From Oscillospiraceae bacterium (GTDB taxonomy: Bacteria; Bacillota; Clostridia; Oscillospirales; Ruminococcaceae), in contig JAYFQJ010000030.1 of the NCBI GenBank assembly GCA_034927165.1, positions 1 to 59,443 on the forward strand: a stretch of 59,443 bases of DNA, in the 5' to 3' direction. The notes beneath the pieces are model-generated. The model was given only the letters and a program-made list of their open reading frames with translations. It was not told where the DNA came from and ran no database searches. Shown piece by piece: positions 4,044 to 25,577 of this stretch. The position numbers were made by a program, and so were the translations under genes. Within the stretch, counting starts at the first letter, position 1; the number at the start of each line of letters is the position of its first letter.

Positions 4044-4130
4044 TGGTGCGGATAACAGGAGTTGAACCTGCATGAACTTGCGTTCACTGGAACCTGAATC
4101 CAGCGCGTCTGCCAATTCCGCCATATCCGC
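4044..4130 (-). tRNA. tRNA-Leu (anticodon CAG)
   Basis: The reverse complement folds as a cloverleaf. Acceptor GCGGATA/TATCCGC. Anticodon arm CTGGA-TTCAGGT-TCCAG. Long variable arm TGAAC-GCAA-GTTCA. T arm GCAGG-TTCAACT-CCTGT. CCA is encoded. Confidence 0.9.
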
Positions 4131-20000: not shown

Positions 20001-20027
20001 GCGCCGCGGTTTACCCGCGGCGCTTTT
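20001..20027 (+). terminator. Rho-independent terminator after nagA
   Basis: 9-bp stem GCGCCGCGG/CCGCGGCGC with a 5-nt loop, followed by TTTT. Confidence 0.75.
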
Positions 20028-20116
20028 GCGCGTCTTTTTGGGATCACCGCATATAAAAAAACAGACGCTTATGTTAGAATAGAATAAAGCCAAGAAGAAT
20101 AAAGGGGAAACGCGAC

Positions 20117-20521
20117 GTGGAATGCTTATGTAAAAGATTGCGCAGGGGAGAGGATCTGCTCGCGGAGATCGAACGGCTCGCGCGGGAGAATCACATAGCG
20201 GCCGGCGTCGTGCTGTCGGCGGTCGGATGTGTCAGCGAAGCGCGCGTGCGCGACGCGTCGGGCATCGCGATACGGCATATCGCGCAGCCGTGCGAGATCG
20301 TATCGATGACGGGGACGGTCAGCGCCGTGCGCACGCATTTGCATATTGCGCTGTCAAAAGAGGACCTGTCGACGGTCGGAGGGCATCTTGCGGAGGGCTG
20401 CATCGTCAATACGACCTGCGAGCTTGTGATCGGTGTTTTGGACGCATATGCCCACGGCGTCGAGCAGGATGCGCACACGGGCTACGACAAGCTCGTTTTT
20501 CTCAGCGGGAAACAGGCATGA
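20117..20521 (+). CDS. PPC (DUF296) domain protein
   Basis: Pattern L..GEDLL.EI..LA....I..G.VLSAVG.V..A.V......EI.S..G.......HLHI.L.......GGHL..G is typical of PPC/DUF296. The stop overlaps the next start (ATGA at 20518-20521). Confidence 0.75.
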   Translation: MECLCKRLRRGEDLLAEIERLARENHIAAGVVLSAVGCVSEARVRDASGIAIRHIAQPCEIVSMTGTVSAVRTHLHIALSKEDLSTVGGHLAEGCIVNTTCELVIGVLDAYAHGVEQDAHTGYDKLVFLSGKQA

Positions 20522-23058
20522 AGCGGCTTTGCATCGGCGTCGTCGCGCATGTGGACGCGGGAAAGACGACGCTCTCTGAGGCGCTGCTGGTTCGGGCGGG
20601 TGTTCTTCGCGCCGCCGGCAGGGTCGATCACGGCGACGCCTATCTCGACACCGACGCGCTCGAAAAGGCGCGCGGGATCACCATCTTTTCCAAACAGGCG
20701 ATCATCCGCAGGCCCGCGTGCGAGCTTACCTTTGTGGATACGCCGGGCCATGTGGATTTTTCAGGAGAGATGCAGCGGGCGCTCGGCGCGCTCGACTGCG
20801 CGGTGCTCGTCGTCAGCGCGGCGGACGGCGTGCAAAGCCACACGCGGACGCTCTGGCGGCTGCTGCGCTATTATCAGATCCCGACGATGATCTTCGTCAA
20901 TAAGACCGATCTTCCGAACGCCGATTGCGGCCGGACGCGCGACGCCCTTGCGGCGCTGGACGCGCGGTGCGTCGATTTCACGGCCGCTGCCTCCGCGCGC
21001 GACGAGGCGGCGGCGCTGTGCGACGAGGCGCTGATGGAGGATTATCTGCGCGGCGGGGCGCTGTCGGACGCGTCGCTCGCGCGGGCGATTTCCGAGCGCG
21101 CGCTGTTCCCGTGCTTTTACGGCTCCGCGCTGAAGCTGGAGGGCGTGGACGCGCTGCTGCGGGCGCTGGAAACGCTGACGATCGAGCCGCCGCGGAGCGC
21201 GGCGTTCGGCGCGCGGGTCATCAAGATATCGACGGACGAGACGGGCGCGCGGCTGACGCACATGAAGCTGACGGGCGGATCGCTCAAGCCGCGCGCGGCG
21301 ATAGAATATGACGGGATATCCGAAAAGGCGACCGCTGTGCGCATCTATTCCGGCGCGAAATACGAAGCGGTCGAGGAGGCGTTCGCGGGCAGCGTCTGTG
21401 CTGTGACGGGGCTTGCGAAAACCTATGCCGGGCAGACGCTCGGCAGCTGTGAAAGCGCGCCGCCGCCGCTGCTCGCGCCGGTGCTGTGCTATCGCGTCGC
21501 GGCGGAAAACGAGGACGCGGACACGCTGCTGCGCCAGCTGCGCGCGCTGGAGCAGGAGGACCCGCTGCTGCACGTCCGTTTTGAACCGTCAAATGCACAG
21601 ATCAGCGTGCGGCTCATGGGCGCGGTGCAGCGCGAGGTGCTCGGAAAGCTTCTGCTGGAGCGCTTCGGCGCCGACGTCCGCTTCTCTCAGGGCGGCGTGC
21701 TTTACCGGGAGACGATCGAAGCCCCCGTCGAGGGCGTCGGTCATTTCGAGCCGCTGCGGCATTACGCGGAGGTGCATCTGCTGCTCGAGCCGACCGAGCA
21801 GGGCAGCGGACTTGCGTTTTCGAGCGCGCTGCGCGGGGATGCGCTGGACCGCAGCTTTCAGAAGCTGATATTGACCCATCTCGCGCAGCGGGAGCATCCC
21901 GGCGTGCTCACCGGCGCGCCCATCACGGACATGAGGATCACGCTCATCGCCGGGAAGAGCCACCTCAAGCACACCGAGGGGGGCGATTTCCGACAGGCGA
22001 CCTACCGCGCGGTGCGGCAGGGGCTCAAGTGCGCGCGGAGCGTTCTGCTCGAGCCGATCTATGACGTGACGCTGGAGCTTCCGAGGGGATTTGTCGGACG
22101 GGCGATGGCGGATGTGCGCCGCATGAACGGTCAATCTGATCCGCCGCGGGCGGACGGGGAGACGGTCGTCCTCAGCGCGCGGGTGCCTGTGCGCGATTTT
22201 GAAGGGTACGCGGCGCAGCTCGCGGCGTATACCGGGGGGCTCGGCCGCGTCAACTGCTTCGTCGGCGGCTATGCGCCCGCGCACGATGCGCCCGCGCTGA
22301 TCGACTCGATCGGTTACGACAGCGAGAGCGACACGGAGAATCCTACCGGCTCGGTGTTCTGCGCGCACGGCGCGGTCTTTACCGTGCCGTGGAACGAGGT
22401 GCGCGGTCATATGCACGTCGGCAGCGGCTTCAGATTCGCGCAGGATGAGCCGGAGTCGGCGGTGCGGAAGAAGCGCTCGGACGAGTTTCGCTCCGCGCTC
22501 GCGCTCGACGCGGAGCTGTTATCTATCTTTGAGCGCACCTACGGACCCGTCAAACGGGAGAAAAAGCAAAGGGCGACCGCCGCGCTGCAGCCGCCGCGTG
22601 CGGCGCGTTCGCAGCCCATCCCGGAGGGGCCGGAGTATCTGCTCGTCGACGGCTATAACATCATCTTCGCGTGGGACGAGCTGCGCGCGCTCACGCAGGA
22701 GAATATGGATGGGGCGCGGGTTCAGCTCATCGACCGCCTTTGCAGCTATCAGGGATATTGTAAAAATGAGTTGATTCTTGTGTTCGACGCTTACCGCGTC
22801 AAGGGCGGCACGGGCGAGGTGGAGCGGCACGGCGGCATCAGCGTGGTGTACACGAAGGAGGCCGAAACGGCGGATATGTATATCGAAAAGACGGCGCACT
22901 CGCTCGCAAAAACGAGACGTGTGCGCGTCGCGACGTCGGACGGAACCGAGCAGATCATCATCCTCGGGCAGGGCGCGCGCCGGGTGTCCGCGACGGCGTT
23001 CCACGACGAGGTGGAGGCGGTCGAAAAGGAGATCCGTGAGATCATCGAAGGGCTGTGA
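20518..23058 (+). CDS. EF-G/TetM-like translational GTPase fused to a C-terminal NYN (YacP/Rae1-type) ribonuclease domain
   Basis: G1 AHVDAGKT, G3 DTPGH, G4 NKTD. EF-G domain IV/V-like GHFEPLRHYAEVHLLLEP. The C-terminus has YLLVDGYNIIFAW, LVFDAY, ETADMYIE and ATSDGTEQIIILGQGA, matching Rae1/YacP motifs. The portion of the long track ORF (from 20227) upstream of 20518 overlaps the PPC gene out of frame. Confidence 0.85.
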   Translation: MKRLCIGVVAHVDAGKTTLSEALLVRAGVLRAAGRVDHGDAYLDTDALEKARGITIFSKQAIIRRPACELTFVDTPGHVDFSGEMQRALGALDCAVLVVSAADGVQSHTRTLWRLLRYYQIPTMIFVNKTDLPNADCGRTRDALAALDARCVDFTAAASARDEAAALCDEALMEDYLRGGALSDASLARAISERALFPCFYGSALKLEGVDALLRALETLTIEPPRSAAFGARVIKISTDETGARLTHMKLTGGSLKPRAAIEYDGISEKATAVRIYSGAKYEAVEEAFAGSVCAVTGLAKTYAGQTLGSCESAPPPLLAPVLCYRVAAENEDADTLLRQLRALEQEDPLLHVRFEPSNAQISVRLMGAVQREVLGKLLLERFGADVRFSQGGVLYRETIEAPVEGVGHFEPLRHYAEVHLLLEPTEQGSGLAFSSALRGDALDRSFQKLILTHLAQREHPGVLTGAPITDMRITLIAGKSHLKHTEGGDFRQATYRAVRQGLKCARSVLLEPIYDVTLELPRGFVGRAMADVRRMNGQSDPPRADGETVVLSARVPVRDFEGYAAQLAAYTGGLGRVNCFVGGYAPAHDAPALIDSIGYDSESDTENPTGSVFCAHGAVFTVPWNEVRGHMHVGSGFRFAQDEPESAVRKKRSDEFRSALALDAELLSIFERTYGPVKREKKQRATAALQPPRAARSQPIPEGPEYLLVDGYNIIFAWDELRALTQENMDGARVQLIDRLCSYQGYCKNELILVFDAYRVKGGTGEVERHGGISVVYTKEAETADMYIEKTAHSLAKTRRVRVATSDGTEQIIILGQGARRVSATAFHDEVEAVEKEIREIIEGL

Positions 23059-23089: not shown

Positions 23090-23113
23090 CGCCCGCATTG
23101 CGGGCGATTTTTT
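23090..23113 (+). terminator. Rho-independent terminator of the PPC-GTPase-NYN operon
   Basis: 7-bp stem CGCCCGC/GCGGGCG with a 3-nt loop, followed by T6. Confidence 0.75.
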
Positions 23114-23457: not shown

Positions 23458-24291
23458 TCATTCCCCTTGTGCGCGGACGAGCCGTCCGCCGATGCGCTCG
23501 CCGCCGCGCAGCGCGCGCTCGAGCTCTGCGCGCGACGCGGGCGCGCCCGCGTCCGTCTCCGGCAGCAGCGGCCAGTAGCGCTTTTGCATATGCGATCGCT
23601 GGCAGACCGGGTTGCGCCGCTCGCGGATGGCCACGCTCTCGCAGTAGTCCTTCCACAGCGCGTGGAATTCCCGTTCGGCGGGGCTGAGCGAGGGCGTGTC
23701 AAACGCGTCCACGCTGATGATCTCGCTGCGCCCGCGCTGGCAGATCAGCGCCGCCGCGTGGGTGCGGTCGTAGATAAGGAAGGCGTCCCGCGGCAGGCGA
23801 TCCTTGAAATGCGCTTCCAGCAGCGGCAGTACGAAATTTTTCGGTTCGATCTCGGCGACGAGCGCGCCGCCCGCGTCGGAAAAACGCACGAAGCCAAGGT
23901 ACTGATGCGCCTCCCGCTCGAGACGGCGCACTGCGAGCGTCAGCTCGCTGACGGTGTCGTCCGCGAGCATGGAGGCCGCGCGCGGACCGCAGCGGAAGCA
24001 CAGCCGCACAAAGTCGAGGATGAGCGTTTCCTTGTGGGAGTGACAGGTCAAAAAACCGCGCCGCACGAGCTCGAGTGCTTCCTCTGATATCTTGTTGAGA
24101 ATGCCGTTTTCCACCCGCCGCGCCTTTGCGAAATCGGTGTCGATGCAGCGCGTCTCGTACAGCGTCGGCTCGCCGTCGCCGCACACGATGTCGATGGGGC
24201 GTTGATTATGGAAAAAACTCGCAAAAACGCAGCACAGCAGGCCGTCGTAGCTGCCGTCGTACCGATAGATCACATCTGACCGCTCAAGCAT
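23458..24291 (-). CDS. DUF4130-type putative DNA-repair protein (partner of the radical-SAM protein)
   Basis: MLERSDVIYRYDGSYDGLLCCVF... matches the N-terminus typical of the TIGR03915-type family. It overlaps the upstream gene by 22 nt. Confidence 0.8.
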   Translation of the reverse strand: MLERSDVIYRYDGSYDGLLCCVFASFFHNQRPIDIVCGDGEPTLYETRCIDTDFAKARRVENGILNKISEEALELVRRGFLTCHSHKETLILDFVRLCFRCGPRAASMLADDTVSELTLAVRRLEREAHQYLGFVRFSDAGGALVAEIEPKNFVLPLLEAHFKDRLPRDAFLIYDRTHAAALICQRGRSEIISVDAFDTPSLSPAEREFHALWKDYCESVAIRERRNPVCQRSHMQKRYWPLLPETDAGAPASRAELERALRGGERIGGRLVRAQGE

Positions 24292-25577
24292 TTTATAGTG
24301 TCCTCCCTTGTGAGCATGGGTGTAAATAAGCTGAGCTGTTCGACCTCGCAGCCGACCGCGAGACGCTCCTTGCAGCTGTCCGAGACGAGCGCGCGCAGCA
24401 CGGTGTCCGGCGTGATGCACACGCCCGCGGCGAGCCGCCCTTTGCAGGTGATGAAATACTGCGCGCGCTTGAGGACGACGCCGATCTTCCGCAGGCCCTC
24501 AAAATCGAGCGCCCCGTTCCTGCGCGCGCGCAGGATGCGCATCGTGCTGTTGACGCCGATGCCCGGCACGCGCAGCAGCAGCTCGCGCGGCGCGGAGTTT
24601 ACGTCGACGGGGAACTGATCGAGGTGGTTGATGGCCCAGTTGCATTTCGGGTCGATGAGCTGGTTGAAGTTCTCGTGCCGGTCGTCCAGCAGTTCTCCCG
24701 CCGTGAAGCCGTAAAAGCGCAGCAGCCAGTCCGCCTGATAGATGCGGTGCTCGCGCAGCAGCGGCGGCCGCGTGTCGACCGAGGGCAGCAGCGGGCTGCT
24801 GTTGACCGGGATATAGGCGGAGTAAAAGACCCGCTTGAGCTTGTATTTCTGATACATCGCTTCGGAAAGCTGCAATATTTTGCGATCGCTCTCGCCCGTT
24901 GCGCCGACGATGAGCTGGGTGCTCTGCCCGGCGGGCGCAAAAGCGCTCGCGTGCTTGTATACGATTAGCTCGCGGCTGTTTTCCGCGATGCGGTTGCGGA
25001 TGAGACCCATCGGCCGCAGGATGGCCGCCTTGCTCTTGTCGGGCGCGAGGCGCGCGAGGCTGTCGCTCGAGGGCAGCTCGAGGTTGACGCTCATGCGGTC
25101 GCACAGCAGACCCAGCCGCTCGATGAGCGCGTCGTCCGCGCCGGGGATCGCCTTCGCGTGGATGTAGCCGCGAAAGCCGTATTCCTCCCGCAGGATGCGC
25201 AGCGTCTCGATCATCCGCTCGCACGTCGCGTCGGGCGTGCCGAGGATGCCGGAGCTGACGAACAGCCCTTCGATGTAGTTGCGGCGATAAAAGGCGATGG
25301 TGAGATCGGCAAGCTCCCGCGGTGTGAAGCTCGCGCGCTCCACGTCGTTGGAGCGCCGGTTGCGGCAGTACGCGCAGTCGTACGCGCACGCATTGCTCAT
25401 GAGCACCTTTAAAAGCGAGATGCAGCGCCCGTCCGCTGCGAAGCTGTGGCAGATGCCGCAGGCCTTCGCGTTGCCAAGGGCGCCGCCCGCGCCGCTCTTG
25501 TCGACGCCGCTGCTCGTGCAGGCGACGTCGTATTTCGCCGCGTCCGCAAGGATGCGAAGCTTGTCAAACAGATCCAT
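24270..25577 (-). CDS. Putative DNA modification/repair radical SAM protein
   Basis: The N-terminus LADAAKYDVACTSSG matches the TIGR03916-type family. Radical-SAM Cys cluster CAYDCAYC. Confidence 0.85.
   Translation of the reverse strand: MDLFDKLRILADAAKYDVACTSSGVDKSGAGGALGNAKACGICHSFAADGRCISLLKVLMSNACAYDCAYCRNRRSNDVERASFTPRELADLTIAFYRRNYIEGLFVSSGILGTPDATCERMIETLRILREEYGFRGYIHAKAIPGADDALIERLGLLCDRMSVNLELPSSDSLARLAPDKSKAAILRPMGLIRNRIAENSRELIVYKHASAFAPAGQSTQLIVGATGESDRKILQLSEAMYQKYKLKRVFYSAYIPVNSSPLLPSVDTRPPLLREHRIYQADWLLRFYGFTAGELLDDRHENFNQLIDPKCNWAINHLDQFPVDVNSAPRELLLRVPGIGVNSTMRILRARRNGALDFEGLRKIGVVLKRAQYFITCKGRLAAGVCITPDTVLRALVSDSCKERLAVGCEVEQLSLFTPMLTREDTIKCLSGQM

Follow-up and report, generated by a model that had tools for sequence, protein, structure and literature searches.

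The NYN-domain, ribosome-associated endoribonuclease Rae1 (YacP) of Bacillus subtilis is a free protein of 170 residues that ends in a conserved basic tail (L..E.L..FEKWRRG, Pfam positions 138-166) and is encoded in the operon cysS-mrnC-rlmB-rae1-sigH. The model in which it cuts mRNA within the ribosomal A site was withdrawn by its authors in 2025; cleavage is now placed 12 nt 5' of the A-site codon, where the stalled ribosome has its tail (PMC12407103). A 2026 preprint reports that cleavage depends on collisions and that collided ribosomes are turned into substrates for transfer-messenger RNA (tmRNA) (PMC13622287). Rae1-type domains have also been met as parts of a larger protein: Atkinson (2015, BMC Genomics, PMC4342817) and Matelska et al. 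(2017, NAR, PMC5499597) both pointed out clostridial proteins in which NYN_YacP is fused to a TetM-like GTPase. Here we describe a divergent member of this family, an 846-residue protein encoded on the forward strand at positions 20518..23058 of a 59,443-nt contig from an Oscillospiraceae bacterium (JAYFQJ010000030.1, assembly GCA_034927165.1); this whole stretch, at its full length, is called the window below.

The earlier note, made from the letters of this DNA, overstated the novelty of the protein, which is not a new architecture. In its domain order (GTP_EFTU, EF-G II-V, NYN_YacP) and its clostridial host it is identical to the fusions described in 2015 and 2017, and it differs from them only by its divergence, by a missing cysteine (Cys588) and by its coupling to a small upstream gene of the PPC (DUF296) type. 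Full-text searches of the literature, which did not extend to two papers on Rae1 (Leroy 2017, PMC5412759; Condon 2018, PMC6152456), turned up no experimental work on the fusion.

Other nucleases that act on the mRNA of stalled or collided ribosomes, SmrB of E. coli and Cue2/NONU-1 of eukaryotes, share with the fusion their logic only, the SMR fold of those nucleases and the NYN fold of the fusion being unrelated (PMC12407103, PMC13622287). The likeness to Dom34-Hbs1, where a translational GTPase delivers a probe to the A site, is likewise one of functional logic, in that a GTPase senses a stalled ribosome. To our knowledge, no characterised system combines the sensing GTPase and the nuclease in one polypeptide.

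The GTPase, the tether and the nuclease

The fusion gene is one unbroken open reading frame (ORF) of 846 codons plus a stop, with its ATG at 20518, as read from the six-frame ORF list and its translation. Its first part encodes a complete translational GTPase, as the earlier note had proposed from motifs that indeed stand where it placed them. Pfam recognises five EF-G domains here: a G domain at 20527..21177 (residues 4-220; GTP_EFTU, 5.8e-47), domains II and III at 21208..21687 (residues 231-390; EF-G_D2 at 231-308, EFG_III at 327-390), domain IV at 21694..22035 (residues 393-506; EFG_IV), and domain V with a short C-terminal helix at 22042..22317 (residues 509-600; EFG_C at 509-592, helix at 591-598). 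All run on the forward strand, as do the remaining parts of the protein. The nucleotide-binding motifs comprise G1 (AHVDAGKT, residues 10-17), T55 of G2, G3 (DTPGH, 74-78) with the catalytic His78, and G4 (NKTD, 128-131), and each of them is 100% conserved in the family alignment, which holds 74 full-length members, each from a different species genome.

Domain IV, in which GHFEPLRHYAEVHLLLEP forms residues 408-425, is the best-conserved region of the family, with a mean column conservation of 0.80. Its loops carry the motifs GxGHxEPLRHYAEVHL and aHxKHTEGGDFRQA, the second of which includes the invariant residues H482, K484, H485, T486 and D490 as well as E487, conserved at 99%; Cys588, near-invariant elsewhere in the family, is the residue missing from the window protein. 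The invariant H482 aligns with the domain IV histidine of EF-G (H573 in Thermus thermophilus numbering), and the first domain IV loop, judged by eye against Tet(M), is presumably shorter than that of EF-G. A role for the fusion as a translocase is unlikely. By structure, a full-length AlphaFold2 (AF2) model built on a 39-sequence alignment (mean predicted local distance difference test, pLDDT, 81.3; predicted template modelling score 0.62) matched ribosome-bound EF-G in the PDB at E 2e-51 (Foldseek), domains II and III included, and EF-G was the top PDB match by sequence as well (226 bits).

Within the superfamily, phmmer scores EF-G slightly higher than the Tet proteins, but the alignment to EF-G splits into two or three pieces, whereas Tet(M) aligns as a single colinear stretch at 29% identity over residues 1-574, and Tet(O), Tet(S) and TetB(P) are 28-31% identical to the fusion. 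The five-domain, EF-G-like layout and the short domain IV loops of Tet(M) and Tet(O) are common to the fusion as well. This kinship, together with the TetM-family name assigned by PGAP/RefSeq and with tet_protect (NF012153, 372.7 bits) as the best NCBIfam match, would fit a tetracycline ribosomal-protection protein whose RNase domain adds to or modifies resistance, and a tie between the RNase domain and drug resistance was indeed speculated upon by Atkinson (2015, PMC4342817). We regard this reading as improbable. The NF012153 score compares with a cutoff of 775, that of NF033148 (244) with 1100 and that of the Tet(M) model (198) with 1420, such that the score reaches at most half of the cutoff for every curated Tet model, and the C-terminal extension of Tet(M) is replaced in the fusion by different sequence. 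Furthermore, the loop III residues Y506-Y507-S508-P509-V510 of TetM, which contact and dislodge the drug in TetM-70S structures, align with S481-H482-L483-K484-H485; as H482, K484 and H485 are invariant, loop III of the family differs from that of Tet. Drug displacement would also leave the strict conservation of the nuclease residues, described below, unexplained.

Between the two enzymes lies a connector with a structure of its own. It opens with a beta-hairpin mini-module at 22318..22422 (residues 601-635; consensus GYDxDxDxENPxDSVFCxHGAGxxVxW), which is conserved in the family and has no counterpart in TetM or EF-G, and continues as a tether at 22423..22632 (residues 636-705) that the AF2 model and the alignment divide into an acidic spacer, a constant segment and a basic spacer. 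The acidic spacer varies between 11 and 25 residues and the second, basic and Pro-rich one (median net charge +5.5) between 23 and 39, with mean column conservation of 0.28 and 0.33 for the two spacers. The segment between them (residues 651-677) measures exactly 27 residues in 74/74 members, bears the motif ELxxIFERTYGP, and falls within a long helix predicted by AF2 at 647-675. From W625 of the hairpin module to Y707 of the nuclease the chain spans 78-101 residues, with a median of 85. The possibility that the ELxxIFERTYGP helix is the relocated tail of Rae1 (LSEEVLKTFEKWRRG) was considered and rejected (phmmer, -2.9 bits; hhalign, P = 0.13, probability 0.5%). In an AF2 model of the C-terminal 264 residues the linker is poorly modelled, with a pLDDT below 50.

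The Rae1/YacP-type NYN domain occupies 22633..23055 (residues 706-846), and the NYN_YacP profile matches residues 708-842 at 2.4e-46, with 158.2 bits against a gathering score of 24.6, which bears out the assignment in the earlier note. Alignment with residues 3-137 of B. subtilis Rae1 (PDB 5MQ8) gives E 2e-28 and about 46-48% identity over 135 residues; hhalign against a profile of nine stand-alone Rae1 proteins gives a probability of 100%, E 3e-52 and 46% identity; and the C-terminal model finds 5MQ8 and 5MQ9 as its top Foldseek matches (E 1.9e-11, root-mean-square deviation 1.9-2.8 A, 43-44% identity). The motifs LLVDGYN (708-714), VFDA (755-758), ETAD (783-786) and ATSD (805-808) supply all four expected acidic positions, D711, D757, D786 and D808 aligning with D7, D53, D81 and D104 of Rae1. 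These residues are 99-100% conserved, with D711 and D786 present in 74/74 members. These two correspond to the residues changed in the published catalytic mutant of Rae1, D7N D81N (PMC10351889). Strong purifying selection acts on GTPase and nuclease alike. The match to NYN_YacP stops at profile position 137 of 166, where the protein ends, and the fusion accordingly lacks the basic tail of Rae1; a second difference is that the NYN domain, free in Rae1, is tethered to a GTPase here.

The earlier note had considered an assembly artefact; that assembly or gene calling joined two separate genes here is an explanation we find scarcely credible. One metagenome-assembled genome (MAG) does contain a stop between the two halves (VVP*NE at L035:1700-1750), leaving two ORFs. 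The frame is continuous, however, in the window, in 73 other independent genomes and in isolate genomes as well, and the stop in the MAG, where the codon of the invariant W625 reads TGA instead of TGG, suggests a mutation or sequencing error. The comparative data thus refute an artefact, and the E-values of both halves together with the architecture shared across genomes exclude a chance resemblance. As an observation in its own right, the interrupted MAG gene could represent a natural split, a pseudogene or an error of sequencing.

A family carried on clostridial chromosomes

The fusion family is large. A word-indexed protein search returned at least 8000 matches, and the best 120, which were inspected, all contain the same six Pfam domains in 846-908 residues at 55-62% identity to the window protein, with Oscillospiraceae, Faecalibacterium and Gemmiger as named hosts; the closest relative among the listed matches (P0002) is 62% identical, and its gene follows an aminotransferase gene. 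An exhaustive HMMER search yielded at least 150 clusters at 50% identity (613-959 bits, 40-59% identity), most representatives of which have 830-1000 residues and align end to end. When one genome per GTDB species was scanned with the C-terminal 264 residues (linker plus NYN) as query, at least 600 stretches matched, and tblastn confirmed 588 of them, such that at least 588 species genomes carry the stretch. The best 80 of these loci were analysed for context; 80/80 align to the entire query, family-specific linker included, and tblastn with the full protein placed the GTPase part in frame 5' of the NYN domain wherever the contig permitted. Isolate genomes with the fusion include R. flavefaciens ND2009, Eubacterium xylanophilum ATCC 35991 and A. 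rectalis. The family is one of Oscillospirales, Monoglobales and some Lachnospirales; it is chromosomal, and its wide distribution is vertical.

A few variants depart from the common plan. In one protein, possibly a chimeric gene call, a class IV aminotransferase domain stands where NYN would be expected (P0249); two end after the hairpin module and lack NYN (P0267 and P0270); one keeps the Rae1 C-terminal tail (P0145, profile positions 1-161 of 166); and in one the G domain is interrupted by about 300 additional residues (P0150).

The surroundings of the fusion gene vary widely and are of a housekeeping kind, in some cases related to translation. The 68 upstream ORFs fall into 88 Pfam families, none of which recurs in more than three loci, and 103 of the 143 neighbouring ORFs are singletons; upstream neighbours of the helix-turn-helix type were met here, as in Matelska et al. 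(2017, PMC5499597). In the abundant form found in Faecalibacterium the fusion follows pgk-tpi-gpmI. In E. xylanophilum ATCC 35991 (L065:1238-7606) the order is DUF1385, prmC, prfA (RF1), fusion and a SpoU/RlmB-like methylase, with gaps of 4-10 nt or overlaps at the junctions, and at a second locus (L048:6810-7586, where that gene alone was examined) a SpoU/RlmB-like methylase overlaps the 3' end of the fusion. These are the only two loci with a SpoU methylase downstream, and the arrangement recalls the rlmB-rae1 pairing of Bacilli in reversed order. One Clostridiales MAG has typA/BipA directly 3' of the fusion (L080:6951-8780); considered at first sight as a second fusion paralogue, this gene proved to be an ordinary TypA/BipA. 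At several loci the gene 3' of the fusion resembles, on the evidence of sequence alone, one for a TrmO-type tRNA methyltransferase.

Of the 72,556 plasmid records searched, no more than two contain the fusion, both of them chromosome-like replicons with secA, rpoB and nusG, and plasmid carriage was rejected on this ground. A number of PLSDB entries are of the same kind: NZ_OY725736/39/40 (Monoglobus), NZ_CP143948 (Agathobacter) and NZ_AP023416 (Vescimonas) are annotated with rpoB/rpoC, nusG-rplK, secA or rlmB, and the unannotated OY725837/79 (Subdoligranulum) gave tblastn matches to NusG and RlmB only. These 'plasmids' appear to be pieces of chromosomes or very large secondary replicons. The absence of the fusion from true plasmids, its housekeeping neighbours and its presence on the chromosomes of hundreds of species tell further against a tetracycline-protection role, real tet genes being found on hundreds of plasmids. 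Carriage by phages was likewise set aside. Two virome contigs filed as 'UNVERIFIED Bacteriophage sp.' contain the fusion, MT835563.1 (L099:5397-8024) and MT835514.1, and in MT835563.1, the record examined, Carb_kinase and PG_binding genes follow it in the order of the Faecalibacterium chromosome, such that the record is apparently bacterial DNA filed among phages.

Possible action at stalled ribosomes

The earlier note had reasoned that Rae1 acts in the A site, that EF-G and TetM dock at the same site, and that the fusion would therefore deliver its nuclease onto ribosomes. With the A-site model of Rae1 superseded (PMC12407103, PMC13622287), this docking logic no longer holds. The intact fusion still makes GTPase-guided delivery of a nuclease a reasonable idea, once it is separated from the same-site argument and, as set out below, from a PPC module and a defence role.

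The reading we favour, at roughly even chances, is that the fusion is a chromosomal housekeeping factor for stalled ribosomes, whose GTPase docks, whose own Rae1 nuclease cuts the mRNA, and whose action is followed by tmRNA rescue. We infer that it binds ribosomes in a GTP-dependent manner, that mRNA is its substrate and that it is specific for stalled ribosomes. In such a scheme, the TetM/EF-G-like body in its GTP form would bind the ribosomal factor site, and the conserved domain IV would reach in toward the decoding centre, the ribosome being one that has stalled, collided or been left with a vacant A site. Thanks to its flexible tether of about 85 residues, the NYN nuclease would then be able to cut mRNA between collided ribosomes or at the edge of the one that is bound. 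Hydrolysis of GTP at the sarcin-ricin loop would release the factor, and the truncated mRNA would pass to tmRNA, as for stand-alone Rae1. The GTPase module would thereby stand in for the means, whatever it is, by which free Rae1 is brought to ribosomes. With the Rae1 cut lying on the mRNA-exit side, the fusion would have to rely on its long tether or act from a trailing ribosome: either the tether might extend around the 30S subunit to the exit side, or the fusion might sit on the trailing one of two collided ribosomes, whose mRNA entry abuts the tail of the leader.

Several points weigh against this picture. The Rae1 site at the exit side, or tail, of the ribosome is far from the factor-binding site; the placement of NYN relative to the GTPase in the AF2 model is unreliable, the pLDDT of the linker being below 50; the fusion might act on rRNA or tRNA instead of mRNA; and the indications that the fusion stands in for free Rae1, to which we turn next, come from chromosome-like records of a few genera.

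Stand-alone rae1 sits between rlmB, its immediate upstream neighbour, and sigH in Bacillus, Listeria, Staphylococcus, Aerococcus, Latilactobacillus and C. difficile. This canonical rlmB-rae1-sigH context is absent from the window and from the fusion loci, and the window holds a single NYN gene, the fusion itself. Fusion-bearing Monoglobus and Agathobacter have rpmG-secE-nusG with no rlmB-rae1-sigH block upstream, genes other than rae1 follow rlmB in Monoglobus and Vescimonas, and the Monoglobus records (at least 1.2 Mb) contain no second NYN gene, the fusion being the sole match. A lookup of SigH in Anaerotruncus returned a sigma factor gene that follows a MatE gene with no rlmB nearby, and bears neither way on rae1. 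Within those few genera, the records are consistent with replacement of free Rae1 by the fusion. It is enticing to go further and suppose that the fusion has replaced free Rae1 in Oscillospirales and their relatives, as a single-polypeptide, GTP-gated form of 'no-go decay' in which stall sensing by domain IV licenses the nuclease; this bolder proposal we hold to be clearly the more doubtful one.

The nature of the RNA target invites a different explanation, that the GTPase positions the nuclease on rRNA or tRNA, either for maturation during ribosome assembly or to inactivate and turn over ribosomes that are defective or idle. Maturation of rRNA or tRNA was the original prediction for NYN_YacP, stand-alone rae1 resides in an rRNA/tRNA-processing operon (cysS-mrnC-rlmB-rae1), some fusions adjoin the SpoU/RlmB-like or TrmO-type-looking genes mentioned above, and the C-terminus of a GTPase at the factor site would lie near 16S h44 and 23S elements. 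Yet the only experimentally defined substrates of Rae1 are translated mRNAs (PMC12407103, PMC10351889), a long flexible tether favours a distant target over the rRNA beside domain IV, and the neighbourhood of the fusion, with its many upstream families, is too variable for a biogenesis operon. We therefore hold an rRNA or tRNA target to be unlikely.

The window locus and the wider meaning of the family

In the window, the fusion gene is preceded by a gene for a PPC/PCC (DUF296) protein at 20117..20521 on the forward strand (134 aa, GTG start; PF03479 at 8.9e-29), and the TGA of the latter overlaps the ATG of the former in an ATGA at 20518..20521, as the earlier note had read. It had also placed terminators on either side of the pair, and hairpins followed by T-runs are found at both positions on the forward strand. 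The 5' boundary of this local two-gene unit is a terminator-like hairpin at about 20001..20027, 3' of an amidohydrolase (NagA-like) gene, with a 9-bp GC stem (GCGCCGCGG/CCGCGGCGC), a TTTAC loop and a following TTTT; a pattern scan showed weaker overlapping hairpins at 20016-20034. The second terminator-like element, at 23090..23112, has its hairpin at 23090-23106 with 7 GC pairs, then ATTTTTTGTT, and lies 32 nt past the fusion stop codon. A further, weak hairpin at 20477-20496 of the same strand (4 GC pairs, then TTTTCTC) falls within the 3' end of the PPC gene, before the ATGA, and is probably due to chance, 9 such sites being found in the region against 3.3 expected.

The view of this pair as a self-contained two-gene module does not survive comparison with other genomes. 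In none of the 80 loci did tblastn find a PPC homologue within 6 kb of the fusion (0/80), a negative that carries weight because Oscillospiraceae PPC proteins at 69-74% identity were within reach of the search. Pfam brought out no PCC among the 68 upstream neighbour ORFs, nor did a lenient threshold among ten small upstream ORFs, which proved to encode ArsR, MarR, TetR, RelB, CbiC, LMWPc and others. Conversely, the fusion stands beside none of the six closest PPC homologues (69-73% identity). In four of these (L100-L103) the order is RsmE, CDP-alcohol transferase, diacylglycerol kinase, PCC and NUDIX, with a 4-nt overlap of PCC and NUDIX, and in the other two (L104, L105) a uridine-kinase-like gene precedes PCC. 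It seems, then, that the PPC gene is a small operon member with promiscuous partners, and, given the counts in both directions, its ATGA coupling to the fusion is a local operon accident.

These counts also bear on the suggestion that the fusion is a translation-targeting toxin or anti-phage effector with PPC as its partner or antitoxin. The small, ATGA-coupled upstream gene in the window would suit such a pair, and toxin-antitoxin genes are found beside two members of the family, BrnT/CopG in A. rectalis and a RelB-like gene at a second locus (L043). The PPC gene, however, is missing from all of the other loci and its closest homologues pair with NUDIX or uridine-kinase genes; the PADLOC defence models gave no match; the surroundings of the fusion showed neither a defence island nor mobile elements, its neighbours being genes of glycolysis, RF1 and TypA; and in the 'phage' record examined it has Faecalibacterium chromosomal neighbours. 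With its vertical spread added, a toxin or defence role is very improbable, still more so than tetracycline protection. The two toxin-antitoxin neighbours themselves are isolated and not conserved: in A. rectalis the BrnT/CopG pair is upstream of the fusion and points away from it (L085:4456-4964), and at the other locus the RelB-like antitoxin ORF is upstream (L043:1505-1876).

The PPC-fusion pair is flanked on one side by amino-sugar and phosphotransferase system genes (EIID, SIS, CutC, HAD, amidohydrolase) and on the other by a DUF4130/radical-SAM pair and an ECF transporter. The DUF4130 and radical SAM genes (23458-25577, reverse strand) are adjacent, maybe overlapping, lie downstream of the fusion on the opposite strand and are unrelated to it; we take them to resemble a putative radical-SAM pair for DNA modification or repair. 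The sole Rfam match in the window is a tRNA gene at 4047-4130 on the reverse strand (54.5 bits).

What the family means can be stated once these corrections are made, namely that the PPC module is not general, that the A-site premise is outdated and that the architecture was known before. RefSeq gives many members the name 'TetM/TetW/TetO/TetS family tetracycline resistance ribosomal protection protein', and some of the carriers, such as Faecalibacterium, Ruminococcus, Agathobacter and Monoglobus, are commensals of very high abundance in the human gut. Surveys of the gut resistome may thus score a housekeeping gene as a resistance gene, even though the window member reaches less than half of the cutoff and the loop residues of TetM are missing from the family, and the RefSeq naming is a likely source of false-positive resistance genes. 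With Rae1 newly seen as the nuclease that turns collided ribosomes into tmRNA substrates in Gram-positive bacteria, its covalent fusion to a GTPase offers a handle on the question of how it is recruited. If GTP-gated no-go decay within one polypeptide were to prove true, the family would be the first to unite a stall-sensing translational GTPase and a rescue nuclease in a single protein, and it would constitute a natural experiment on where and how Rae1-type nucleases engage ribosomes.

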